Position numbers and translations under genes: made by a program
Notes under the pieces: generated by a model
Databases searched by the model: none
The model's input: the letters and a program-made list of their open reading frames with translations, nothing else
What the model was told of the DNA's origin: nothing
Source of the DNA: an uncultured Gemmatimonadales bacterium
GTDB lineage: Bacteria; Gemmatimonadota; Gemmatimonadetes; Gemmatimonadales; GWC2-71-9
Assembly (NCBI GenBank): GCA_963739455.1
Contig: CAVUAK010000001.1
Span: 2,048,001 to 2,112,000 of the forward strand
DNA: 64,000 nucleotides
Direction: 5' to 3'
Part shown: piece after piece, positions 1-13,949 of the stretch
Layout of the letters: every line of letters starts with the position of its first letter
Numbering within the stretch: the first letter of the stretch is position 1

Positions 1-641
1 GGCACCCTCCTTAGCCCACCATCTCACCCACTGCCGGGCCCTCTTACATCCGCTCGGTCTTCACTGACATACGGTTAGCCCTGTGTGACCCGCTGATACC
101 CAATCAGCTATCAGGGTCAGGGGAACCCAACAGGATGCTCGTGGGGTCTGAGCCTGTCTGTGCGGGGCACCAGAAGGGCCTTTGAAGGGGCCTTCGGAGG
201 AGCCTTGGCGGGCTCAGTAGGCTCGATGCGCGCCTAGCTGGGGTTCTTGATAGGGAACCTGCTGAGGACCCCTTGCGGGAATCTTCAGGAAAACGGGCTG
301 AAATCCCCGAAAAACGGTCATTTTCTCGCGATTTCGGGCCGAAATAAGGCATTTTGGGGGTGTCGAAGGGCATTCGGAGGGGCGGTGTCTAGGGACCCCT
401 AGAAATGGATCAGAGCCCGGCTAGGAACCCACTGAAGTCACTGTCACGCGCTCAAGTGGGTCCTGTAGAGCCACTGTGCAGACACAGCGAGCGAGATGAG
501 TGCTTCTATTTCGAGCGAGGTTGACTCAGGACGAACGATCTCTGGCCTAGTTGAGCCGAGTGAGCGTTGAGGATAGATCGTGGCTCAGACTGGCGTAGGC
601 TGGCTAGTGGAAGAGGCATCAATCGGGGCAGGCATCTTGCT

Positions 642-911
642 ATGTCCGAAGGCATGAAAGTGATGAAGCGCCCGAAGAAGAGGCCGGTCCTCTACCACGG
701 AAAACCGTGTCACCGCTGCGGAGGCACCCGCCGGTTCAAGAGCAACCGAAGCTGCACAGTCTGCACGCGGAAGGCTGCGGCGGAAGATGCCAAGCTCTAC
801 CATGTCAGGAAGTTCAACCGCAGGGCGGCTTGGGTGCGGTCGCACAAGGAATTAATGGATCGTCTGGAAGCCCTCTCGAAGACCCTGCCCAGCTACGCGG
901 ATCTGGAGTAG
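642..911 (+). CDS. Small C4 Zn-finger protein (phage-type)
   Basis: YHGKPCHRCGGTRRFKSNRSCTVCTRKA, paralogous to the Zn finger of the HNH ORF at 3688; start uncertain (642/654/663). Confidence 0.7.
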   Translation: MSEGMKVMKRPKKRPVLYHGKPCHRCGGTRRFKSNRSCTVCTRKAAAEDAKLYHVRKFNRRAAWVRSHKELMDRLEALSKTLPSYADLE

Positions 912-1284
912 TAGCACCCTAGTGACTTCATGTAAGGAAATGCGAGTGCGAGTGTAGCATTTAAAGCATTTAATTGCTGCATGTTAGAACACATTGTGTT
1001 GCTCATTATCTGCACAAATGCTCCCTGTAGTGCATAAGGAACTCTCAAAAATCGTCCGATTTGTAACGAAGGGCGCGCCCCGAGGCGCCTTTTTCCCACC
1101 TCGACAGGGCCGGTAGTAGCCCCAGATCCTTGATGTAAGAAATTGCGAGGGCAATGATACAGCGCAAGATGTTTATTAGCTTAATCTTACGGTCAGTCTA
1201 TGTAGTGGAAAATCTGCACAAATGCCACCTGTTTTGCACAAGAGACCGCGAAAAGGTCCGACCGTAGTGCTATGGCGCTACCCG
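908..1284. repeat. Two degenerate ~204-bp-period direct repeats in an AT-rich non-coding region
   Basis: ATGTAAGgAAaTGCGAG 930-946 vs ATGTAAGaAAtTGCGAG 1133-1149; ATCTGCACAAATGC identical at 1008-1021 and 1212-1225; GTAGTAGC and GTCCGA blocks also colinear. Confidence 0.7.
1069..1094 (+). terminator. Possible intrinsic terminator
   Basis: GGGCGC/GCGCCT stem followed by T run. Confidence 0.35.
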
Positions 1285-1711
1285 CAGTCAGGAACTCTTG
1301 AGCCTTCGGTTCTCCTTTGGATGAATACCTCCGACCGTAGTGAGGAAGAGACGCGGTTTGATCTCAACGACTTACGGAAACGTGAAGGGCACGCCAAGGC
1401 ATTCCGCCTAAGCGTCTGTGCTGCGTTGGGGTTGCTGCACTCGTGGTGTCAGGAGTGTATAGCACGACTCATCTGTGCAACCATCCAGCGGCCTGAGAAA
1501 CCCGAAGGGAATCGCCCACCCAATCACAACGACTTAGCCAAGCTGGTTGATCCCTCGTCGGAAATTGCCCTAGCTCCAAGACGTGTCATGCTTTACGAAG
1601 CTCTGCCGGACAGTTTGTGAAGAATGAACAAATAGCTTAGGAACCTTCGGAGGCTCGCCGGGCCCTCCCTTTTATAACCGTTCCCACACTACCGGACTGC
1701 AAGAAGTTGCC

Positions 1712-1735
1712 GACTGGCTGACGCTATAGTGGGCT
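1712..1735 (+). promoter_or_regulatory. Possible T7/SP6-type phage RNAP promoter
   Basis: GCTGACGCTATAG (1717-1729) matches the SP6 core GGTGACACTATAG at 11/13; lies upstream of the + strand operon; single copy. Confidence 0.3.
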
Positions 1736-1871
1736 CTCTGGGTGGTGATAGGCTCCTTCTTCAGTAATCCCCTCAGATACCTCTGAAGGTTCTTGGAGGT
1801 AGTTGGTAGCTCCAGTTCCCCACCAAGTTCCTCAACCAATCCCCTGCAAAGGACCCTGCCATAGGCCCGCC

Positions 1872-3311
1872 ATGACTTCGCTTTTCCTCGACTACCGGTC
1901 CGCTCTCGTGGATCGGGTGCCCCACCTCAGCCTCGAACGCTTGACTGAGATTGGAGGGCAACGGGGACGCCTTCACGCTCAGGCTCGACAGGACGGATTG
2001 ATACGCCTCCTCCTGAGCAACTATGAAGGCACCCGACGAAGTTGGAACTCCGGTACCGACTACCGCGATTCCTGTTTCCCCAAGAAGACCCTTCAGAAGT
2101 ACCTCAAGACCTCCGGCAGTTCCCATCATCAGAAGTTCCTCACGCCACTCTTCGCATTTCATCAGGGGCAACGCGGGTACTCCGCCTCTGCTGGGATGGG
2201 TAAGAGCTATCGCATGCTTCCCCACATCCGCGCTGTGTTGGACGATCTCTACCAAGGCTTTGCTCCGGTTCGGCTGATCGGAAGAGATGGGGAGGAAGTC
2301 TTCCTCAAGGACCTCGCCGGGTTCCCCTTCACACCCACCTGCATGCTGCCCGGCTGCGTCCCGCTCGATGCCGTGGCGCTCCATCGGCGGATTGCGGAGG
2401 TGGAAAGCTGGCAGACAGACACCATTGGGCGACTTGCGAAGGCTGAGATCCTTCAGCGTCTCCGAGTCCTACGGAAGTGGGCTGTATCTGCGGGTGGAAT
2501 TCCGAACGGCTACAGCATGACCTCAACGGGACGAGCTGGTCCCTCAACAGAAGGAGGCCCTCACCTCATCGGCATGTCCCCCGAGGTGCGAACGCTGGTG
2601 TTTGCGGAGACGGATCTCGTGGACTTCGACTTGAAGGCGTCCTTCTGGACCTGTCTCCAGTCCGTGGCGGCACACCTCACGATCAAGACACCCGCTATCT
2701 CAGACTACATCAGCCACCGAGACCAGTTCTTCCTCCCCCGATGGGCGAAACTGCTCAACATGGACGCGGCGGTCTTCAAGCCCGTCGCTACCTCGTGGCT
2801 CCTCGGCGCGCAGATCTCACCCTTCGCAAAGGCCATCAGGGACCTCAACGGGAACCCCTTCACGATCTCCGCAACGCTCCGTAGCGATGACCTCACCGTG
2901 CGTCTACAGAAGCGGATCAGGGCGGAAGCGGCGAAGGTCTTGAACAAGTACGCGGCAGGGCTCCCGAAGGGGACCTCTGGAGGCGTCTTGAATGCAGTCG
3001 GAGCGGAGTTCTTGGGGGACGCTGAGGAAGAGGGTGGGCTCCACTGCCACCTACTCACCGGCTTGGAGCAGTTCGCCATGCGCTCCATAGTCTCGCACAT
3101 CCCCACCCCTACCGCCGTGATCTTCGATGGTGTCATAGCTCCAGCGTTCCCGGTGGAGCATCTCGAAGACGTTGTAAGGATTCAGTCAGAGAAAACCCTC
3201 GGGTTCCCCCTCCGAGTTCGTATCAAGGCATCTCCGTTTGCCGAGCAGTTCGAACGGATGCGCTCTACGCTTCGCTCCTCACTCCCAGCGCGTGAGACAG
3301 CAGCAGCATAG
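1872..3311 (+). CDS. Family-A-related polymerase (TV-Pol-like primase/polymerase domain) with N-terminal putative DNA-binding region
   Basis: Ordered motifs STGR; LVDFDLKAS (motif A-like); FKPVATSWLLG (motif B-like K...G); LTGLEQ; AVIFDGVI (motif C-like hDG). No 3'-5' exonuclease motifs seen. Confidence 0.65.
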   Translation: MTSLFLDYRSALVDRVPHLSLERLTEIGGQRGRLHAQARQDGLIRLLLSNYEGTRRSWNSGTDYRDSCFPKKTLQKYLKTSGSSHHQKFLTPLFAFHQGQRGYSASAGMGKSYRMLPHIRAVLDDLYQGFAPVRLIGRDGEEVFLKDLAGFPFTPTCMLPGCVPLDAVALHRRIAEVESWQTDTIGRLAKAEILQRLRVLRKWAVSAGGIPNGYSMTSTGRAGPSTEGGPHLIGMSPEVRTLVFAETDLVDFDLKASFWTCLQSVAAHLTIKTPAISDYISHRDQFFLPRWAKLLNMDAAVFKPVATSWLLGAQISPFAKAIRDLNGNPFTISATLRSDDLTVRLQKRIRAEAAKVLNKYAAGLPKGTSGGVLNAVGAEFLGDAEEEGGLHCHLLTGLEQFAMRSIVSHIPTPTAVIFDGVIAPAFPVEHLEDVVRIQSEKTLGFPLRVRIKASPFAEQFERMRSTLRSSLPARETAAA

Positions 3312-3385
3312 CTGGCCCACTACACCCGACGCGGACCTTACATCCGCAGCACTTCACCCCACATCATCAACCTCTCAATAGGACT

Positions 3386-3589
3386 ATGCCCACCACGAAC
3401 AGTCTCCAGACCCGCCGCCGTCCCGCCTCGAACGCTCGCTATGCCTCCATCGGCTTCATGCGTGAAGATCTCGAACGCTTCGAACGCCTCCGCAACATGC
3501 TGACTAGGCAGTGGAATACCAGTGTTCCCCCGAGCCGCTCCGAGGTGGTCACGCTCGCTCTCGAAGCCCTCGAAGAGAAGCTCAAGTAG
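3386..3589 (+). CDS. Ribbon-helix-helix DNA-binding protein
   Basis: 67 aa; strand YASIGF, helix REDLERFERLRNML, helix SRSEVVTLALEAL; AGGA upstream. Confidence 0.65.
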   Translation: MPTTNSLQTRRRPASNARYASIGFMREDLERFERLRNMLTRQWNTSVPPSRSEVVTLALEALEEKLK

Positions 3590-3687
3590 TTCACTCCGCA
3601 GTTTCCTCAAGCAGTACCCCACCCCGCTCCACCGTCGCCCCTCCTTGCCGCGCCCTGCGGCTTCATCGCGACAGAAAAACCGCAGTC

Positions 3688-4143
3688 ATGTCTACTACGA
3701 CCTCCAACGTCCGGCCTCTCACGGTCACCTACGAGGGCTGTCCCTGCCGCAACTGTGGCACGACGACGAAGTACCGCTCGAACCGCATGTGTGTCGTCTG
3801 CACGGCTCGTCGCAACAGGACCGAACCACTGCGCGCCGCAAAGTTGGAATGGACCGAAAACAATCCCGACCGCTACGCGGCACTCGCGGGCAAGCACAAC
3901 GCCTCGCGCCGGTATCCGGGCTGTGTCGCCCCTGACTTCGACCTTGAGGCTACGGTCCCATTCTACCAGCTAGCCCGAGAACTCACGCGCACGACGGGTC
4001 TTCGCTTCGAGTGTGACCACATCATCCCACTGTGCGAAGGCGCAATCCACGATTGGACCAACCTTCAGGTGCTTCGCGTTGACGAGCACCAGCGGAAGAC
4101 CGCGACAGAACACCCACGCTCACGCAAGGAAAGTGCAGCATGA
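3688..4143 (+). CDS. HNH endonuclease with N-terminal C4 Zn finger
   Basis: CPCRNC...SNRMCVVC and ECDHIIPL...HDWTNLQVL...H. Confidence 0.85.
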   Translation: MSTTTSNVRPLTVTYEGCPCRNCGTTTKYRSNRMCVVCTARRNRTEPLRAAKLEWTENNPDRYAALAGKHNASRRYPGCVAPDFDLEATVPFYQLARELTRTTGLRFECDHIIPLCEGAIHDWTNLQVLRVDEHQRKTATEHPRSRKESAA

Positions 4144-4268
4144 AGAACCCCAAGAAAACCCCACGCGGTACCCCACGAGCCTACTGGAGCCTTGACCGGA
4201 TTGTGGCGAAGGTCATGCACGGCTTCGTGGATCATGGCAAGTACGCCTACCTCGAAAACCCGAAATGA
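4140..4268 (+). CDS. 42-aa microprotein MKNPKKTPRGTPRAYWSLDRIVAKVMHGFVDHGKYAYLENPK
   Basis: ATGA overlap with HNH stop, AAGGA upstream, ATGA overlap with next ORF; below ORF-track cutoff. Confidence 0.55.
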   Translation: MKNPKKTPRGTPRAYWSLDRIVAKVMHGFVDHGKYAYLENPK

Positions 4269-4411
4269 ACTTCTCGCACCATGCAGACTACCCGCGTCCG
4301 ATCATCGGTAAGCGATGCGGGAAGTGTCGAGGCTGCTTCTGGGAGGTCACTACCACCGGACGGTCGTGCATTGTCTGCACCCGGAAAGCATCCCGTGCTA
4401 TCGAGCGATGA
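4265..4411 (+). CDS. 48-aa Zn-finger microprotein (…GKRCGKCRGCFWEVTTTGRSCIVCTRKASRAIER)
   Basis: ATGA-coupled; motif GKxCxxC…RSCxVCTRKA shared with ORF 642-911. Confidence 0.6.
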   Translation: MNFSHHADYPRPIIGKRCGKCRGCFWEVTTTGRSCIVCTRKASRAIER

Positions 4412-4592
4412 TGCTTCGATCTGTTGCCCACGCTGCAAGCGACTGGTTCGCTACATCGGGAGTAATGGCATGTGCGGCGCGTGCTGGCAAGCGACGGTAC
4501 CTGTAGAGGTCTCCGAGGAAGAGCATGACGCTATCCAACATGCAGCCGACCAAGAGGCTGCTCGACACAATGGAGTGAGACAGACCAAATGA
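4395..4592 (+). CDS. Small Zn-finger protein (CPRC…SNGMCGAC)
   Basis: C-terminal part of track ORF 4281-4592; GTG start with GGAAAG upstream; ATGA overlap with next ORF. Confidence 0.5.
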   Translation: MLSSDDASICCPRCKRLVRYIGSNGMCGACWQATVPVEVSEEEHDAIQHAADQEAARHNGVRQTK

Positions 4593-4768
4593 CCAAGATG
4601 TTCTTCAGTGGCTATAGCGAGAAAGAGCATACCTGCTCGCGCTGCGGAGTTCACGGCAGCTTCGGCCAACATGGGCTCTGCTTTAGGTGTTCACTCCCAT
4701 CATCCCCCCACAACATCAACGAGAATGACGACATCAGAACCCGATTCCGTAGGTATCGCTCCGACTAG
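4589..4768 (+). CDS. 59-aa Zn-finger microprotein (CSRC…GLCFRC)
   Basis: ATGA-coupled; MTKMFFSGYSEKEHTCSRCGVHGSFGQHGLCFRC…; below ORF-track cutoff. Confidence 0.5.
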   Translation: MTKMFFSGYSEKEHTCSRCGVHGSFGQHGLCFRCSLPSSPHNINENDDIRTRFRRYRSD

Positions 4769-4870
4769 GGGCGTACTGTCTGACAAGTCCCCTTCCGTAA
4801 CCCTCTCGGCGGCGCTTGTGCTCCTTCAGGCCGTCCGCATCGACACAAAGCTGTCGCATCTCTTCAAGCC

Positions 4871-5695
4871 ATGAACATCAGTGATCTCCTGAGAACGCCG
4901 TCGAAGCCGCGTACTCGCGGAGTCCGACAGTGCTCCATTCCGGGCTGCACCAACCTCGGGAAGCGAAACGTCTACTCTCCCCTCTGTGGTAAGCACATTC
5001 GGCGGAAGGAACTGAACGGGCACCCGGAGCAGGTAACTGCGAGGCTCAAGGATGCAAAGCCCTACATCGACACTGTGAAGAGGCTACTGCGAAGGCTCCC
5101 CCACGAGAACCGCATCAAGCTTGAGGGCGCGATGCATCGTAAGTGGCTCAATTACCGAGACTGGCTACATGACGTGGAGTCAGGGCTAGAGCCGAGCTAT
5201 GCCACCCGGCGCTGTGAGCGGGCCGCAACTGAGCTTCTCCGCGTCTTCGATAAGTGCGACCCTGTGACCGGCTTCACTCTTCTCGCCGCCGTCTTCCTTT
5301 GGGACGCAAGCGAGCCGGGGCGGTTTAAAGCGCCTTACGGGTTGGAGTACTCGCTAGTCAACCTGTTCACTCATCTCGGCCCAAAGCACTCGGCCCGCAC
5401 AGTCTGCCGTCGTAATGGCGTTGTCGAGACCCGGACCGAGTACCGAGTTGCTCCCAAGAGTGTGCGCCTTCACATGGCGGATTGGCTCACCGCGTTTGCG
5501 ACTCCCTTTGCGGCACGGATGCTTGCCCTGTCGCGCTCTGAGTCGGAGGTGAAGAGGCAAGAGCAGGAGCTTCTTCTCACGCTCTTCTCGCCCGTCAAAG
5601 CTGAACTGGACGCACGGAAAGCTCTTGTAGAGGAGCGCCTGCACATTGCCCGAGAGATCCGCGCTGAAGAATTGAGCCAGACCACAGCGGGTTGA
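4871..5695 (+). CDS. Hypothetical 274-aa protein with N-terminal C3H Zn-binding motif
   Basis: CSIPGC…SPLCGKH…NGHP; long clean ORF in operon direction. Confidence 0.75.
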   Translation: MNISDLLRTPSKPRTRGVRQCSIPGCTNLGKRNVYSPLCGKHIRRKELNGHPEQVTARLKDAKPYIDTVKRLLRRLPHENRIKLEGAMHRKWLNYRDWLHDVESGLEPSYATRRCERAATELLRVFDKCDPVTGFTLLAAVFLWDASEPGRFKAPYGLEYSLVNLFTHLGPKHSARTVCRRNGVVETRTEYRVAPKSVRLHMADWLTAFATPFAARMLALSRSESEVKRQEQELLLTLFSPVKAELDARKALVEERLHIAREIRAEELSQTTAG

Positions 5696-5912
5696 AGCGG
5701 CCCCCCGTGCAGGGGACAAGCCAATGCGACAACTCAGTGTGGGCAGGAGGAAGAGAGTCGAAGCCGCAACATGGCAACGCCCTGCGGGGACCCATGAGGC
5801 GCCAACCGAGGCTCTCCCCTCCGCTGGTTTTCATTGTTGTACCTCATCGAACCTCCGAATCACTCGGAGATCATTCATTCAACCGCCGCAGTACACAAAG
5901 GAATCAATTCCA

Positions 5913-6224
5913 ATGATCGACCACACCGAACGCCGCACCGCTATGTACGGGAATGCAACCACGCACTCCGTGGTTGAGATGATGCAGAATCCGCTTTATG
6001 AAACGAGCGCGACTTACCGCGCAGAGGTTGCTGCAAAGATCGCTGCCGAGGATGCGGCACAGTCCACCATGCCGGGAACTGAGATCGTACCAGAGGTGAC
6101 CGAAGGTCTGCGGCCCTTTGCCGATCAGTTCGAACTGAACGCGGCGATGCAGTCCGAGCGATACCGCCGGAGCCCCGAGTACCGGGCGAACGTGGCGGCA
6201 CGGCTCTCCATCTCCAACGTCTAA
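5913..6224 (+). CDS. Mini capsid-scaffold-like protein (two T7 gp9-type C-terminal motifs)
   Basis: C-terminus FADQFELNAAMQSERYRRSPEYRANVAARLSISNV resembles the T7 scaffold C-terminus (F.D..E…AM…RYR….YR..V…SN); second internal copy MMQNPLYETSATYRAEVAAKI; AAGGA RBS. Confidence 0.7.
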   Translation: MIDHTERRTAMYGNATTHSVVEMMQNPLYETSATYRAEVAAKIAAEDAAQSTMPGTEIVPEVTEGLRPFADQFELNAAMQSERYRRSPEYRANVAARLSISNV

Positions 6225-6492
6225 CCCAACGCCGGTAGGCAGAGAGGTGGTGAAGACTTATTCCTAACATCAGCAAGAGCGGGGCGGTCGTTCCAATGCC
6301 CCAGCCGGTAGATGCCACGCCGTACAAGCAGACCTCTGAGGTCCTTGGCGTCCGAAGCACCAAGTAGTCCCTCGCCTCCCGGAGCAATCCGGGGGGTTCG
6401 GTCCCATGCCTTCCTAGGCAGCGACCTGTTTGACGATTCGTTGATCCCCTCCACCCACTTTCCTCCATACACTTCCTCAACCGGACCTCACC

Positions 6493-6753
6493 ATGACCCC
6501 TCAACTGCATATCGCGCTCATCAGTCGCGATTGGGCCGTACGCAGCATGATGCTCCGACGGATTCCCGTTGAGGACCTCCGGGAGGGACTAGGAGCAGTG
6601 CTTCCAGATGAAATATTGTTCAGCCTACAAGACGAATTGCGGAGACGAGGAGAACGTTGGGAGGTTCCATTGACGCTCGCGGACGATCCGTCCGTTCCGG
6701 CGCACAAGGTACCGTATCCGCACCCTGAGCCAAACCGAGGCATTCGCCGATAG
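6493..6753 (+). CDS. Hypothetical protein
   Basis: 86-aa ORF with GGAC upstream, converging on next gene. Confidence 0.4.
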   Translation: MTPQLHIALISRDWAVRSMMLRRIPVEDLREGLGAVLPDEILFSLQDELRRRGERWEVPLTLADDPSVPAHKVPYPHPEPNRGIRR

Positions 6754-6758
6754 AACTG

Positions 6759-8852
6759 CTACTCCTTTGCGCGGCTGCGACTCGGAGAGGCGCGCTTTAT
6801 GGTGTTCACCTTCTTTGCCGACTTCACGCTCGGTGCCTTCTGAACAGTCTTAGCCTTCGGTGCCTTCGTCGCCGGATTTGCTGCGGGTGCGATGGTCTGT
6901 GGCAGATACTTGTCATGTTCCCTTTTTAGGAACTCGATCCCTGACGCCTTTGTCGCGCTAAGTTCGAGCTTTTCCTTGAAAAACTCTAAGCGCGCTCGCG
7001 CATCGTTGATGACATCTGCCCAAGTCTTCACATAGACCTTACCGCGACCGTCATAAAGCAGTGTCGGATAGGTCTGTGCCTCAACTTCAACATGCAAGGC
7101 TGAGGACAATGCCCAGAATTCCCAAGTGGTTTCAGCTTTGGGAAATGCAGGCGATGACATGAGGGCCTGCGCGTAACGCATTACCTGCGTTGTTGCATTT
7201 AGGTCGATCTTCTCGCTTGGCCGCTTCAGTTCGACAACCAAGTGATGGCGCTTCGGCGAGGAATTGAGCTTGAGGATCTTCGAAAACATGAGATCAAGAG
7301 TCAAGTTCATGTTTGGGTTTACGGAGCCGTCAAGCGCCAAGATGTCAATGTCGTCGCGCTTACCGCACTCTTGACGCACAACCGTGTCCAGCTTTTGGTC
7401 GTCAGCCGTGATGTTCAGTTCCTCGCCAAAGAGCCACGTATGCGCGGCGACGATGCGATGAAGCTGCGTGCGCTCCTTCACAACGTTTTTGTACTCTGTG
7501 CCGTAGGCGAGGGCGTGTAGGCCCTCTAGGAAGTCAAGGCGATCGGCTACGAGTGAGGAAGCGGAAATGATTGCCGACAGCGAGCTTCGGCTCAACAGCT
7601 TGCTCAGCTCCTCCTGTTTTGCCGGAGAAAGCCCAAGCACTTCAATGAGGATGTGTTGCAGGTCCTCAGAGCCCGATTCAATCGCACTACGGAGAAGCCG
7701 AAAAGTGAGCTTCTTTGACGCGTCATCGGCAGCAGCAATGGCCGGGGAGGCATCAACAACGTTGATCGCCAAGATGTCAAAAACCCGGCGTTCCGCTTCC
7801 TCAATGATTGTAACGGGCGCATTCTCAAACGGATAGACTTTATCAGCCTTCCACTCTTCGACGATGGAGAGTCGCTTTTCTTGCTTTAGGTTGGTCACAT
7901 AGTCCCGGACAGACTGCCGCGCCGCATTGGCCAAAGCCGTAACGTCGTCGTTCAGGTCGTCGAGGATCAGGGTACCGCTTGTCGCCGCTTCTGAAATCGC
8001 TGGCGAAGACAAATGAGCGGTGAGGTTTAGAGAGCCAGTTCCAACGTCGAGGGTGACGTGATGCAGCGTGTTGCCTGCGCTGTCGCAAAGGTAGAGATAC
8101 TTCTGGATCGCCGCGTCAGAATTCCACTCGATAATGTCCAGCGTGCCGTGAATGTCCTTCTTGTCGTTTACGGAGGCAACAACCTGAACTGTCGAACTCC
8201 GTGCTATGAGGGCATTGGCGTCGAGCTGTTCACCCGCAATCGTGATAACCGTATCTGGGTACTTGCGAAGGAAGAGCGCGAATGTACGAGCGAGGACGGC
8301 GCGGCTCTCCGCAGAGTGCAAGTCCGGGAGATTCTTGTTCATACCGGTAACTGTGACTTCGGTGCCGGTGTCTGTCCGATCATTCTCGGGGACTGCGTCC
8401 GAGATTTCGAAAGAGACGGTGCTAGTGCCCAACTTGCCGCGTAGGGTGACGGTCTCTAAGCCCTTTGCACCGTCGAAGGTTGATTTCCATTCGACATTTG
8501 GGCCAAGTGCGAATGCGCGAAGACGTCCCTGACCGCGCCTGCCATGCACGATGCGACCCTTGCCCGTAACAGTCGCATTTCTCTTTTTCGAACCCCCTAG
8601 CAAGCTGAACCCCTCCGCAGCCTCAAGGGCAGACATTCCGGTCCCATTATCCGCTACTACAATGCTCTCTGTGCCTGTCAGAAGCGTCTGTGTTACGCTG
8701 ACACTTACAGCCGTTGCATCAGCGTCAAGACTGTTCCAGATAAGTTCTGAGAGCGCAGCAAGTGGATTTCCACGCGTAAGGCTGTGGAGATGGTCGCCCG
8801 CGAGTGCCACCGGCAGCGGATGCATCTTGGGAGCGGGGAGCGTGGTGGCCAT
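6759..8852 (-). CDS. GHKL (HATPase_c/MORC-like) ATPase fused to C-terminal PD-(D/E)xK-like nuclease; probable defence gene
   Basis: ELIWNSLDA, DNGTGM, GRRGQGR GHKL motifs; DLMF…VVELKRP nuclease motif; start MATTLPAPK (track ORF N-extension is antisense to comM). Confidence 0.8.
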   Translation of the reverse strand: MATTLPAPKMHPLPVALAGDHLHSLTRGNPLAALSELIWNSLDADATAVSVSVTQTLLTGTESIVVADNGTGMSALEAAEGFSLLGGSKKRNATVTGKGRIVHGRRGQGRLRAFALGPNVEWKSTFDGAKGLETVTLRGKLGTSTVSFEISDAVPENDRTDTGTEVTVTGMNKNLPDLHSAESRAVLARTFALFLRKYPDTVITIAGEQLDANALIARSSTVQVVASVNDKKDIHGTLDIIEWNSDAAIQKYLYLCDSAGNTLHHVTLDVGTGSLNLTAHLSSPAISEAATSGTLILDDLNDDVTALANAARQSVRDYVTNLKQEKRLSIVEEWKADKVYPFENAPVTIIEEAERRVFDILAINVVDASPAIAAADDASKKLTFRLLRSAIESGSEDLQHILIEVLGLSPAKQEELSKLLSRSSLSAIISASSLVADRLDFLEGLHALAYGTEYKNVVKERTQLHRIVAAHTWLFGEELNITADDQKLDTVVRQECGKRDDIDILALDGSVNPNMNLTLDLMFSKILKLNSSPKRHHLVVELKRPSEKIDLNATTQVMRYAQALMSSPAFPKAETTWEFWALSSALHVEVEAQTYPTLLYDGRGKVYVKTWADVINDARARLEFFKEKLELSATKASGIEFLKREHDKYLPQTIAPAANPATKAPKAKTVQKAPSVKSAKKVNTIKRASPSRSRAKE

Positions 8853-8951
8853 CGGATGACTCCAGAGAGAAGGCAGCAGCCACCCCAAACTAACCCGAAC
8901 AGTGGCCGAAGATAGGGTGGCGGAGTTGGTGCTTGTCCTTAGGTCCCCAAG

Positions 8952-9863
8952 ATGCTGTTGATCGGCCCTCCCGGGTCGGGCAAGACCATGCTCGCGCGCC
9001 GCCTGCCCGGCATCCTCCCGGCGATGTCGCTGGACGAAGCGCTCGAGACCACGAAGGTGCACAGTGTTGCCGGCCTGCTCGGCGCGGGCCGCGCGCTCTG
9101 CACCACCAGGCCATTCCGCGCGCCTCACCACACCATCAGCGACGCTGGTCTCGTGGGTGGCGGCACGCCCCCGCGCCCCGGAGAAGTGAGCCTGGCGCAC
9201 GGTGGCGTGCTCTTCCTCGATGAGCTCCCGGAGTTCAGGTCGAGCGTGCTCGAAGTGCTGCGCCAGCCGCTGGAGGATGGCACCGTCACCTTGAGCCGCG
9301 CGGCGATGAGCCTCACATATCCTGCGCGCATCATGCTGGCGGCAGCGATGAATCCATGCCCGTGTGGCTACGCCGGCGATCCGGCGCACGCCTGTCTCTG
9401 TCCTCCGCAGGCGGTGCAGCGCTACCGTGGCCGTGTGTCGGGTCCACTGCTTGACCGCATCGACATTCACCTCGAGGTGCCCGCCATTCCCTACCGGGAC
9501 CTGACCGGGAGCCAGCCGGCCGAGCCGAGCCGCAGCATCGCGGAGCGGGTCGAGAACGCGCGCGTCTCGCCCAGCGCGAACGGTTCGCGGCCATTCCCGG
9601 CATGCATGCCAATGCGCACATGGGTGCCAGGGAAGTGCGTCGCTTCTGCGCACTCAACTCCGGAGTCGGAGGCGATCCTGCGATCCGCGATCACCCGGCT
9701 GGGCCTGTCGGCCCGCGCGTACCATCGCGTGCTCAAGATCGCGCGGACCATCGCCGACCTCGCGGGCGCCGATGCGCTCGCCGTCGCCCATGTCGCGGAG
9801 GCGATCCAGTACCGGAGCCTCGACCGGAGCCAGCCGGCGCTTGCGCCGGCGGGAGGGCGCTGA
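8952..9863 (+). pseudogene. comM: 3' portion of ComM/YifB Mg-chelatase-like AAA ATPase, interrupted by the element
   Basis: [50 protein letters not shown]-terminal half missing; two compensating frameshifts ~9570-9660. Confidence 0.9.
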
Positions 9864-9939: not shown

Positions 9940-11242
9940 ATGAACCTGCGCGCGTATGTCGTGGCAACAGGCGCCCTTCTCGTCCTGGGCCCTCGAGTCG
10001 CTCATTCCCAGAACATCGTCACGGCGGCCCCGCCCGCCGGCGATGTCGCGCAGGCCTTCAAGCGGCTGGCGCCCGCGGTGGTGCGCATCGAGGTGCGGGA
10101 GACCGGCGCGGTGGCGCTGAGCAGTGTCGGGTCCGGCTTCTTCGCCGCTCCCTCGGGCCGGATCATCACCAACTATCACGTGATCTCGCGACTGGTGAAC
10201 GAGCCCGAGCGTCATCGGGGCCGCGCCACCTGGGGCAGCGATACGGTCGACATCCAGGTGCTGGCGGTCGATGTGGTGCACGACCTCGCCGTCCTCGATG
10301 CCCCGGACGCGCACGCTGCCGCCATGCTGACGCCGGTCACCGCCACCTGCTGAAGGGTGATCGCGTTCTCGCGATGGGCCACCCACGCGACCTCGGCCTG
10401 AGCATCGTCGAGGGCACCTACAACGGGCAGGTCGAGCATGTGCTGACGCCGCGGTTGCACTTCACCGGACCGCTCAATCCCGGCATGAGCGGCGGGCCGG
10501 CGGTGACGCCCGACGGGGCGCTGGTGGGCGTCAACGTGGCGACGATGGGTGAGGAACTCGCGTTCCTGGTGCCGGCGGAGTTCGTGACCCGGTTGCTGGA
10601 CCGGCTTCCGGCAACGGTCCCGGCGGCCGAGGAGCTTGCGGCGGGACATGGCCACGCGGCTCGGACAGATGGGCATGGATGCACTCGACGCCCTGTTCGT
10701 CCCCGGCGCGCCAACGGTGCAGCTCGGCCCGTATCTCGCCCCAACCGAACCGTCCGCCGCATTTCAGTGCTGGGGTGATGCACGCGAGCCCAAGGATGCC
10801 GCATACCGGGTCGTGGTGCACCGATGCAGCACCGACGAATCGGTGTTCCTCTCCGAGGACCTGAGCGCCGGCCTGGTCTATTTCTCCCACCAGCTCCTGG
10901 ATGGCGCCGCGCTGAGTCGCCTTCGACTGCTCACCGCGAGCGAGCAGGCCTTCAACGACAAGCTCACGTTCGATGGCACCGCGCGAGAGACCACCCGCTT
11001 CCGCTGCACCACCGGGAACGTGCGCACGGCCACGATGACCTTCCGCGCGGAGGTGTGTGCCCGGCGACTCAAGAGCCTGTACGGGCTCTATGAGGCGGTG
11101 ATGCGGGCCACGCCCCTCGGCGCGACCGCGCAGAGCCTGGTCACCACGCTCACGATGTCCGGCGTGCGCTTCGACCTCATCCAGCGCACGGTCGCACGGT
11201 ACCTCGCATCGATCACGCTCGTCACCGGAGGTCGCGGAATGA
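9940..11242 (+). CDS. Secreted trypsin-like (S1) serine protease; frameshifted in read
   Basis: Signal peptide, GSGFF…TNYHV, DLAVL, NPGMSGGP split across ORFs 9772/10374/10636. Confidence 0.75.
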
Positions 11243-12221
11243 GCTGGATCGAGGTGGTTGACGCGAGCGGCCGGGTCGTTGCGCGCCGGGCGGCTGAAGG
11301 CGTGCCGTGCACCGTCGGGAGTGCGCTGGACAACACCCTGCTCATCGAGGGCCCCGAGGTGGCGCCCTACCACGCTCGCATCGACCGGGAGGCGGACGGT
11401 CGCCTCACGGTGACGGTGCTGGGACAGTCGTCCGGCCTGCAGCGCCCGGGCGCCCCTGAACGCGCGATGTCCCTCGCGCTGACGCCTTCGGCGCCGGTCG
11501 CGGTTGGGGGTGCGTCATCCGGCTCGTGGATGACGCGACTCGCGACCTGCCGGTGGGAGTCATCGGGCCCGAGCCGCGCTGGCGGGAGTTCGTATCGCGC
11601 CGGCCGGTCCAGTGGGGCGCCGCCGCGCTCCTCGCGATCAGCGGTGCGGCGATCGGCTACTTCACGATGCCGGGGTCGGAGCGGGCGCTGAATGCGTTCG
11701 CGGTTGCGGTCGCCCTGGTCCTGGCCGAGTGCGCCTGGGTGGGTCTGTGGGCACTCACCGGCCGTATCCGCCATGGCCGCGCCCGGTTTGGCGAGCACTT
11801 CGTCGTGGCCACCTTCATCGCAATTGTCGGGCTGGGCGGTTGCCGAGCTGGAGTCCTGGCAGCAGTTCCTGCTGCCGGGCGCCAGCGCCGCGGCAACAGT
11901 GCTGCTCGCGCTTACCGCGGTGGTGTGGGCGCTCGCGATCTTCCTGCACCTGCGCGTGCATGAACCAGGCGCACTGGCAGAAGCACGTGCGCATTGCGGC
12001 GGGCTTCGGTGTCGCGCTTGTTCGCCATGGTGCTTGCCGTGCGGGACTATCAGGGCCCGTGGAGCAGCGACATCGAATTCTCTGCGGTCCTCAAGCCCAT
12101 CACGCGGGTGTGGGCGTCGAGCCCGGATCAGTTCGGCGAATCACTGACGAAATTGCAGGGGCAGCTCGACAACGATGGCGCGGAGCCTGTGGCGACGGTC
12201 GCCGCGGACAGCTCCGAGTAG
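11239..12221 (+). CDS. FHA-domain membrane protein; frameshifted in read
   Basis: TVGSALDNTLLIEGPEVAPYHARI FHA-like motif followed by TM segments in ORFs 11526/11692/11994. Confidence 0.65.
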
Positions 12222-12230
12222 CGACCGCAG

Positions 12231-13949
12231 CTACCAGCCGGCGGCACCCCCGGCCACCCTCGGGTCGGGCACTCCCTCGAGTCCCTGCGGCGTCACCCGG
12301 ATGGCATTCACCGTTCCCATGAACTCCGGTTCCTTCCACAGCTCGTAGCCCATCGCCTTCAGCTCGGCGCGCACCTGCGGGCTCAGGCCCGCTGGTTCCC
12401 ACCCCACGACATCGGGCAGGCCATTGTGGTGGACGCGCGGCGCGGCAACGGCCTGTGCCAGCGTCATCTGCTGGTCCACCACGTTCGATGATCACCTCGA
12501 ACACCGAGGAGATGATCGTGGCACCGCCGGGCGAGCCGAGGACGATCGACAACTGACCGTCGCGATCGAGCACGATGGTCGGTGTCATGGAGGAGAGCAT
12601 GCGCTTTCCCGGCTCGATGCTGTTGGCCAGGCCCTCCTGCCGGATACCCATCGCGTTCACCACTCCTGGCTGCGTGGTGAAGTCGTCCATCTCGTTGTTG
12701 AGCAGGAATCCGGCCCCAGCCACCACGAATCCGGAGCCGAATCCGGTGTTGATCGTCGTGGTGATGGCGGCCGCGTTGCCGGCACTGTCCACCACCGAGA
12801 AGTGGGTCGTGTGCTGCCCCTCGGCGAGCGCCGAGCCCTGGAGCGGCGTGGCGCGATCGGCCGCGATGCTGCTGCGCTGCGTGGTGGCGTAGGTCTTCGA
12901 CGTCAGCTCGGCCAGCGGCATGTTCACGAAGGCCGGGTCGCCGAGCAGGCTGTTCCGGTCGAGGAAGGCGCGTCGCAGTGCCTCGACCTGGAGGTGTACC
13001 AGCGCCGCGGTGCCCGATGCGGGGAGGTCATATCCCTCCAGGATGTTGAGGGCCTGAATGAGCGTGGCGCCACCGCCCGACACCGGCGGCATGGTGATGA
13101 CCCGCCATCCCCGATAGGTGGTCTCGAGCGGCGTCCGCCAGAGTGCCTGGTAGCGCGCGAGGTCCTCGCGCGTGATGAGGCCGCCGCCCAGCCTGGACCT
13201 GCTTCGCGATGAGGTCCGCGAAGCTGCCGCGATAGAAAACGTCAGCGCCGCTGTCCGCGATGAGCCCGAGCGTGTGCGCAAGGTCTGCCTGGTACAGCGT
13301 GTCGCCGGTGCGCCAGGCGCGTCCGTCGCCGCGGACGAAGATCGCCGTTGAAGAAGGGAACGGAGCAAAGCTGCTCCGCACTCCCGGCGAGCCATTCCGC
13401 GCGCAGGCTGTCGAGTACGTGAGCCTTCGCGAGTGCCACCGCCGGAAGGACCACCTCGCGCCAGGGAAGGGCGCCGAAGCGCTGGTGCATGGCCCAGAGC
13501 CCCGCCACCGATCCGGGCACCCCACCGGCACGGGCGCCCACGATCGACGCGTTGGTGACGTTGCCTGCGGAATCCACGTACATGTTGCGCGACGCCGCGC
13601 CCGGTGCGGCCTCGCGGAAGTCGAGGGCGAACACCTGCCCGTCGTGCTGGCGATACACGAGGAAGCCACCGCCGCCAATGTTGCCGGCGGCAGGATTCAC
13701 GACTGCCTGCGCGAAGGCAAGCGCCACGATGGCGTCGATCGCATTGCCGCCGCGTCGAAGAATCTCTGCCCCGACGTCGCTCGACGCTGGATTGTCGGAC
13801 ACGGCCATCACGTGCGGTTCGACAAGGGGCGGTGCCACATCGGCGAAGCGCCAGCGTTCGGCAGGCGCGTCCGCGCCGCCGCAACCGGCAGCCAACACGA
13901 CAATGAGGGCAGGCCCGGCCAACCGAACCAAGGCGGCAACACGGTCCAT
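12231..13949 (-). CDS. ggt: Gamma-glutamyltransferase; frameshifted in read
   Basis: GGNAIDA, DFREAAP, TTHFSVVD, LLNNEMDDF, KRMLSSMTPT, DPR. Confidence 0.9.

Follow-up and report, generated by a model that had tools for sequence, protein, structure and literature searches.

Two diverged copies of a T7-type scaffold motif in a 103-residue protein of a capsid-less comM island: a candidate hijacker of phage head assembly

Scaffolds of the gp9 type (PF05396, PHROG 1052) measure about 243–290 aa, carry one C-terminal motif of roughly 35 residues, PF.....AM.DPRY..D..YR..V..RL..S., and are encoded between the portal and capsid genes. What, then, is the role of a bacterial protein that shares this motif but has a length of 103 aa, two motif copies, no scaffold body, and no portal or capsid gene beside it? 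Such a protein is encoded at 5913–6224 (plus strand) of the window, by which we mean the whole stretch of 64,000 nucleotides analyzed here, from an uncultured Gemmatimonadales bacterium (genome G000). The original prediction held that it combines a C-terminal and an internal T7-scaffold motif joined by a short linker, and that it serves a phage satellite as a bivalent mini-scaffold, which either redirects helper heads to a smaller size or poisons their assembly.

The 103-aa ORF (P0001) includes both peptides quoted in that prediction. It is an open frame with a GC3 of 0.73 and a ribosome-binding site, the Shine–Dalgarno-like AAAGGA at 5897–5902 (+), 10 nt ahead of the ATG. An alternative in-frame ATG lies upstream at 5724 and would give 166 aa, but the start of the closest relative, P0002, coincides with that of the 103-aa form; neither a sigma-70 promoter nor a terminator was found within 4800–6800. 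Pfam PF05396 matches the ORF twice (E 1.9e-10, 41.9 bits; curated cut-off 27.1 bits), as does PHROG 1052, 'head assembly' (E 1.9e-14): In both cases the best-scoring stretch is the C-terminal end of the profile. A profile match to gp9-type C-termini, the lack of which would have counted against the prediction, is thus present. PF05396 is the sole Pfam family reached at E ≤ 1, and PADLOC returned no match for the protein. The individual copies were scored with a scaffold-only HMM made from the C-termini of 8 full-length phage scaffolds, thereby avoiding circularity: It assigns 30.3 bits to residues 20–45 and 35.5 bits to residues 68–102, whereas the top domain among 2000 shuffled versions of the protein reaches 7.4 bits. 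Copy 1 (residues 13–47; 5949–6053, +) is degenerate in its N-terminal part; copy 2 (residues 68–102; 6114–6218, +) has the full motif and lies C-terminally as in phage scaffolds. Between them runs an Ala/Thr/Glu/Pro-rich linker (6054–6113, +), which results in a copy-to-copy spacing of 55 aa. Compared in register, the copies are identical in 11/35 residues and 46/105 bases; the duplication is therefore old. The closest phage scaffolds are those of loci L033 and L034 for copy 1 and those of L041 and L040 for copy 2. The predicted architecture is thus confirmed: The ORF consists of two diverged copies of the T7-type scaffold C-terminal motif. As a side observation, 11 of 14 residues around the TSATYR core of copy 1 (5959–6015) are common to the L033 and L034 scaffolds.

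Could the ORF simply be the frameshifted or truncated tail of a full-length scaffold gene that precedes a capsid gene? HMMs built from 59 scaffold bodies and from 22 T7-type capsids find no match in the island that carries the gene or in the whole G000 genome, while both recognize the control, a T7-like prophage in the genome G556 (E 3.9e-40 for the body, E 6.6e-92 for the capsid). On these grounds the possibility, which the original prediction had named as one that would refute it, was ruled out. G000 is 83.7% complete, and the island is contained in one contig. A tblastn search of G000 with seven proteins of the G556 prophage retrieved one host DNA polymerase-like gene only; portal, TerL, tail tube, internal protein, and RNA polymerase had no match. 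Family searches of G000 for portal and RNA polymerase were blank as well, with controls that were equally silent. The protein has the C-terminal motif of PF05396 members above the curated cut-off, and it lacks their N-terminal and central body, their total length of about 250–300 aa, and their gene position between portal and capsid; it is no member of the gp9 family.

The same distinction emerges from other motif loci. The motif occurs once in each of 111 such loci (31 metagenome loci plus the best 80 of 102 viral ones), a set picked by motif pattern that is redundant and comprises 39 distinct motifs. In 105 of the 111 it ends a protein of 243–283 aa, the remaining six being interrupted by the contig end, and a downstream ORF of 280–420 aa, where present, is a capsid protein in 84 of 85 cases. 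A degenerate DNA pattern for two tandem motifs hit no locus in viral contigs or metagenomes and two loci in genomes, both by chance; this pattern is insensitive because it prescribes certain codons and holds the spacing to within 30 bases.

Protein databases, in turn, hold a small set of relatives. A representative search gave nine matches. Besides the query, these were six true relatives and a pair of long repeat proteins (P0003 and P0004, 1861 and 2686 aa), which were discarded as chance matches. Of the 17 matches of a profile search, four had been found before, one was P0010, and 12 were ordinary scaffolds. Six relatives of 111–174 aa (P0002, P0005, P0006, P0007, P0009, and P0010) contain two or three motif copies, and P0008 (74 aa) contains one. 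P0002 is 49% identical to the 103-aa protein over its whole length and keeps the two-copy design. Starting with the protein of the window, the copy spacings are 55, 56, 83, 57, 60, 66, 57, and 56 aa; six of these eight intervals, the window's included, fall within 55–60 aa despite differing linkers, which are mostly Pro/Ala-rich and range from 23 to 51 aa (about 23 aa in the 103-aa protein). All six relatives that we looked up belong to clusters with one member each. Three of them lie on contigs of 14.6, 15.7, and 17.7 kb, lengths similar to that of the island described below, possibly by coincidence. Viral-contig locus searches with P0001, the 502-aa protein of the island, and the queries A3, A6, and A8 yielded no relative, a search with A2 yielded ordinary scaffolds only, plasmids gave no match, and seven viral loci whose recombinases are more distant all lacked the motif. 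An Atlas search additionally contained clusters of 32 and 38 aa, very short single-motif PF05396 proteins (possibly, like P0008, monovalent mimics or else fragments from contigs), as well as a row 'putative terminase small subunit' (0.88), which we treat as a lead only.

We then turned to the genomic setting. The island that carries the gene measures some 16 kb (G000:C1, about 2040990–2056955); its right part fills positions 1–8955 of the window and stands out by a GC content of 0.54–0.61 compared to 0.61–0.73 in the rest. The left 7 kb precede the window and encode a large serine recombinase (L002:1053–2714; resolvase, recombinase, and Zn ribbon domains in Pfam), alongside which lies the 5' half of comM. 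The 3' half of this gene (comM/yifB; 8952–9863, +; PF01078, E 1.3e-81) follows at the other end, so that the island interrupts it; the corresponding junction is uninterrupted in G556. A 20-nt inverted repeat at 8935–8954 is 90% complementary to its partner at the left island end (L002:1001–1020), and the two are the att arms of the recombinase. We also observed that an in-frame ATG for the 3' half of comM comes from the right island end (8935–8960), so that its AAA domain could be made alone, and that host genes to the right look frameshifted at 9491–9653 (comM tail) and 10531–12322 (serine-protease region), possibly owing to assembly errors.

The cargo in the window begins with a small Cys-rich phage-type ORF (567–911, +; PHROG 15231, E 2.4e-06), a 502-aa protein that is common to sister islands and, on weak leads, a possible replication protein (1803–3311, +), and an HNH/endonuclease VII-like ORF (3511–4143, +; PF01844, E 3.5e-04; PHROG 1035, E 4.7e-11). 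Directly upstream of the two-motif gene lies a 274-aa orphan (4871–5695, +) without a credible match in Pfam, PHROG, or PADLOC; the scaffold-body HMM does not match it either, and it is not scaffold-related. Downstream follow an 86-aa orphan (6493–6753, +) and a 697-aa GHKL ATPase on the opposite strand (6759–8852, −; PF13589, E 4.5e-16; PADLOC REase_II N-terminal, E 1.6e-10), which represents defense-type cargo; Pfam, PHROG, and the capsid HMM detect no capsid gene 3' of the mimic. Further cargo comprises AlbA_2 and DUF559 proteins, and PHROG, HMM, and tblastn scans recognize no other T7 gene on this island. As in phage satellites, an integrative element with a recombinase and att ends is here found together with the lack of a complete virion module. 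Core genes of PICI, P4, or PLE (AlpA-primase, Sid/Psu/Delta, PLE core) were absent from Pfam and PHROG scans of selected ORFs, the 20 largest direct repeats include no repeated phage-promoter family, and neither a packaging signal nor a CpmA-like partner was identified.

A link of the island to T7-type phages is supported by its sisters, whose T7-type genes favor the satellite setting that had been assumed for the protein. In G308, the same comM site is occupied by an island of 11.5 kb, the recombinase of which is 42% identical to that of G000; this island encodes a T7-type internal virion protein of 1193 aa (PHROG 6651, E 1.8e-45; L123:10600–14181), contains no mimic, and gives no capsid HMM match. 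The mimic is therefore not a core gene of comM islands. The recombinase of the comM island in G038 is 38% identical, and beside it lies a T7-like RNA polymerase gene (PHROG 414, E 2e-206; L145:3322–6090, G038:C13, minus strand) with catalytic motifs that look intact; no cognate promoter was identified for it. The same island contains an internal virion protein represented by its C-terminal part (PHROG 6651, E 6.3e-37; L151:3–1238), an ORF of 330 aa whose match to tail fibres is short and weak, and a diverged mimic of about 196 aa. One motif of this mimic is clear (23.3 bits); the second copy is degenerate and scores 6.7 bits with the scaffold-only HMM, i.e., in the shuffle range, and 11.9 bits with a wider HMM. 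The island shows no capsid HMM match either, albeit with an assembly gap that interrupts the island and may hide capsid genes. Apart from the mimic, only the recombinase is common to the islands of G000 and G038.

A search with an alignment of the mimics over 396 host-family genomes (11 candidates scored in each) gave five matches: G000, G556, G038, and, weak and unconfirmed, G109 and G448. A comM-type recombinase at E ≤ 1e-60 was detected in two of 391 host-family genomes, G000 and G038 (3 candidates scored in each), in a sample nearly but not exactly the same as that of the mimic search. Both comM islands found in the host family hence carry a mimic, and all three comM islands carry at least one T7-derived gene, which with three islands is a pattern and not a statistic. 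PF05396 itself, run over 401 genomes of the phylum, matched in G000 only and missed G038; Pfam therefore overlooks diverged mimics. Taken together, the comM islands probably constitute an undescribed island family.

What a helper of such islands might look like is illustrated by G556, a member of the same family as the host. Its T7-like prophage spans at least 38 kb (G556:C11, about 520000–560000; L139–L140 and the start of L159) and encodes RNA polymerase, primase-helicase, DNA polymerase, portal, capsid, tail tubes, and terminase as well as a 272-aa one-motif scaffold and a PHROG 6651 protein. Its RNA polymerase is 41% identical to that of the G038 island and its internal protein 26–28% identical to those of the islands. 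A candidate promoter, TAAAACATCTAC, occurs at five sites (one divergent) with 27–42 bits, four of the sites being the training set. In the three comM islands this promoter is absent, the best score being 7.2 bits, in a search that a lone promoter of another helper would escape. Consequently, nothing ties the G556 prophage to the islands as their cognate helper, and it was rejected in this role. Two peculiarities of this prophage may be recorded here: Its capsid gene is interrupted by an endonuclease VII ORF (L139:17463–17813), which suggests an intron, and a second, partial, near-identical structural region at a contig start (L141:1–10023, G556:C9), in which an insertion-sequence-like ORF separates capsid from scaffold, is either a duplication or an assembly artefact.

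A PDB sequence search retrieved no chain matching the motif or the full scaffold, and the portions of the literature accessible to us contained no statement that places the gp9 tail on the T7 coat protein. The proposed coat-binding role of the motif draws on other scaffolds. In P22, the scaffold's loop-hook is located C-terminally. This loop-hook recruits the coat protein (PMC12005531), and the 80alpha scaffold binds coat by its C-terminus (PMC5644958). By analogy, we consider it quite likely that the T7-type motif binds coat protein, too. The capsid complex that the original prediction envisaged was modeled with the mimic and two copies of the L033 capsid, which is a stand-in and not the helper's own: The score of 0.34 (runs 0.32, 0.37, and 0.34) exceeds the best control at 0.09, with a contact agreement between runs of at least 68% and a partner pLDDT of at least 66, and constitutes a pass graded as weak, given that at scores ≤ 0.60, 18 of 157 solved pairs passed and both passing mismatches out of 215 fell in the same range. 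The model lends weak support to a possible binding of the mimic to a capsid subunit.

Known systems provide a framework for what such binding might achieve. Enterobacterial T7 islands, reportedly described by Chen and Schneider in 2006, are said to be integrated, linked to T7-like phages, and defined by tandem T7-like promoters, whereas no repeated phage promoter was found in the comM island; to our knowledge, they include no scaffold mimic. Sid of P4 is a satellite protein that remodels the helper coat into small heads, and both Sid and TcaP of PLE are external scaffolds unrelated to the helper's internal scaffold; unlike these, the mimic is of the internal-scaffold type. TcaP, too, is reported to remodel the helper coat into small heads (PMC10945586). 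The closest parallel is CpmB of SaPI1, a 72-aa protein with the C-terminal motif of the scaffold, the dimer of which straddles capsomers and makes small heads (PMC5644958). The mimic resembles CpmB in its small size, in having only the C-terminal motif of the scaffold, and in its two hooks. The two differ in construction, however: The N-terminal domain of CpmB is folded and mediates dimerization, and CpmB acts together with CpmA on a siphophage, while the mimic joins two diverged hooks in one chain without a dimerization domain, is directed at a T7-type target through an unrelated motif, and has no CpmA-like partner that we found; the RIIK motif of CpmB is absent from the 103-aa sequence. Rcm of SaPIpT1028 is a lone satellite gene product that mimics the topology of the helper scaffold and binds the major capsid protein (PMC12409344). 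It belongs to a staphylococcal siphophage system and is experimentally proven. By analogy, the mimic would work like CpmB and Rcm but is no member of either family, as motif, single-chain bivalence, and target differ. In the portions of the open-access literature covered, we found no satellite of a T7-type phage with a scaffold mimic or head remodeling.

From these comparisons a mechanism can be proposed. The 103-aa protein probably grabs shell proteins of T7-type phages and thereby hijacks or jams head assembly. The capsid-less integrative island would parasitize T7-type (Autographiviridae-like) phages, and mobilization by a T7-type helper appears reasonably likely to us; the ejection proteins of the sister islands suggest travel in T7-type particles. 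During infection, each copy would dock on the inside of a helper coat subunit at the site meant for the scaffold, where the mimic would compete with the helper's gp9. With its two hooks separated by about 55 residues and without a scaffold body, the mimic would tie neighboring subunits, comparable to the CpmB dimer of SaPI1, and assembly would be bent toward smaller heads into which an island of 12–16 kb fits and a helper genome of about 40 kb does not. At 11.5 and 16 kb, the islands reach about one third the length of a T7-type genome, and the ratio of SaPI1 to 80alpha is likewise about a third. That the outcome is small heads and not failed heads only is something we infer. Our preferred reading is that a new T7-type satellite makes small heads by means of a scaffold competitor that is CpmB-like and bivalent within a single chain; it is accordingly offered as tentative. 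Points against it are the weak second copy in G038, the lack of a mimic in G308, and, for the window's island, the lack of any other recognizable T7 gene, of the G556 promoter, of a packaging signal, and of a CpmA-like partner in our searches. A more elaborate version is on the doubtful side: The three comM islands (G000, G038, and G308) would form an undescribed family of T7-type podophage satellites that combine T7-derived components of their own (scaffold mimic, ejection protein, RNA polymerase) with the helper's shell and tail, with the two-hook protein acting as a single-chain internal size determinant for small T7-type heads and each hook suited to a different helper lineage.

Small-head redirection is favored by the narrow copy spacing and the sister islands, although the 55-aa repeat could be a mere duplication unit, and linkers that look flexible and span 23–51 aa are a poor tool to fix an angle. 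Precisely these flexible, variable linkers, together with the motif matches themselves (PF05396 and scaffold-only HMM), the occurrence of two or three copies, the divergence of the two copies of the 103-aa protein toward different phage lineages, as expected of a broad-range decoy, and the defense-type cargo (GHKL ATPase, AlbA_2, DUF559) on an island with no other T7 virion gene, favor jamming. The protein would then be an anti-phage decoy, the avid coat binding of which displaces full-length gp9, the factor needed for bringing in the portal and closing the shell; aberrant or empty heads would protect the host, and packaging of the island would be unneeded. We regard this as somewhat unlikely, since the internal virion proteins and the RNA polymerase of the sister islands suit an element that travels in T7-type particles, and PADLOC does not match the protein.

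Should the motif bind the portal or core instead, or should capture of helper coat or portal act as a sensor that triggers excision of the island or a neighboring effector, the lack of a PDB match confirming the partner of the gp9 C-terminus would be accommodated, as would the P22 scaffold, which touches portal as well as coat (PMC12005531). Such a role is improbable in view of a 103-aa protein without a second domain, the lack of a partner gene common to the G038 island except for the recombinase, and the capsid prediction that passed, weakly, above its controls. A functionless relic, i.e., the duplicated scaffold tail of a decayed T7-like prophage on islands that are gutted prophages, would explain why the sister islands contain scattered T7 genes in differing combinations and why the second copy in G038 is degenerate. 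It is nonetheless very unlikely: The frame is open with a ribosome-binding site and the GC3 given above, P0002 retains the whole two-copy design at 49% identity, no remnant of a scaffold body or capsid is present, recombinase and att arms are intact, and the two-copy form occurs in none of the 111 other motif loci.

If the preferred reading of a scaffold competitor is true, the island would represent a hitherto undescribed type of element that parasitizes T7-type phages. A natural protein cut down to a repeated gp9 tail singles out this tail as the scaffold's functional unit, and it raises the questions of where gp9 binds on the coat and whether the size of T7-type capsids can be redirected from inside. 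In practice, the mimic could serve as a compact inhibitor of T7-type phages or as a tool for producing small T7 particles.

Finally, the 502-aa protein connects the island to a wider group. It belongs to an unannotated family of 460–515 aa (window 1803–3311; L123:15079–16452; L125:15504–16952; L127:15331–16875), with homologues in three other genomes among 401 searched, that spans comM islands and tRNA-site integrase islands; the tRNA-site islands of G084 and G089 have this gene alone in common with the island of the window and lack the motif. HHalign against T7-type DNA polymerase was negative, the predicted folds are poor (pLDDT 34 and 52), and neither Foldseek hits to Pol I domains (E 0.4) nor winged-helix matches at Z 5–6 are significant. 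A weak Atlas lead points to PF00476 (0.76), and conserved DYD and (H/F/Y)DG motifs suggest that the family may be a derived family-A polymerase.
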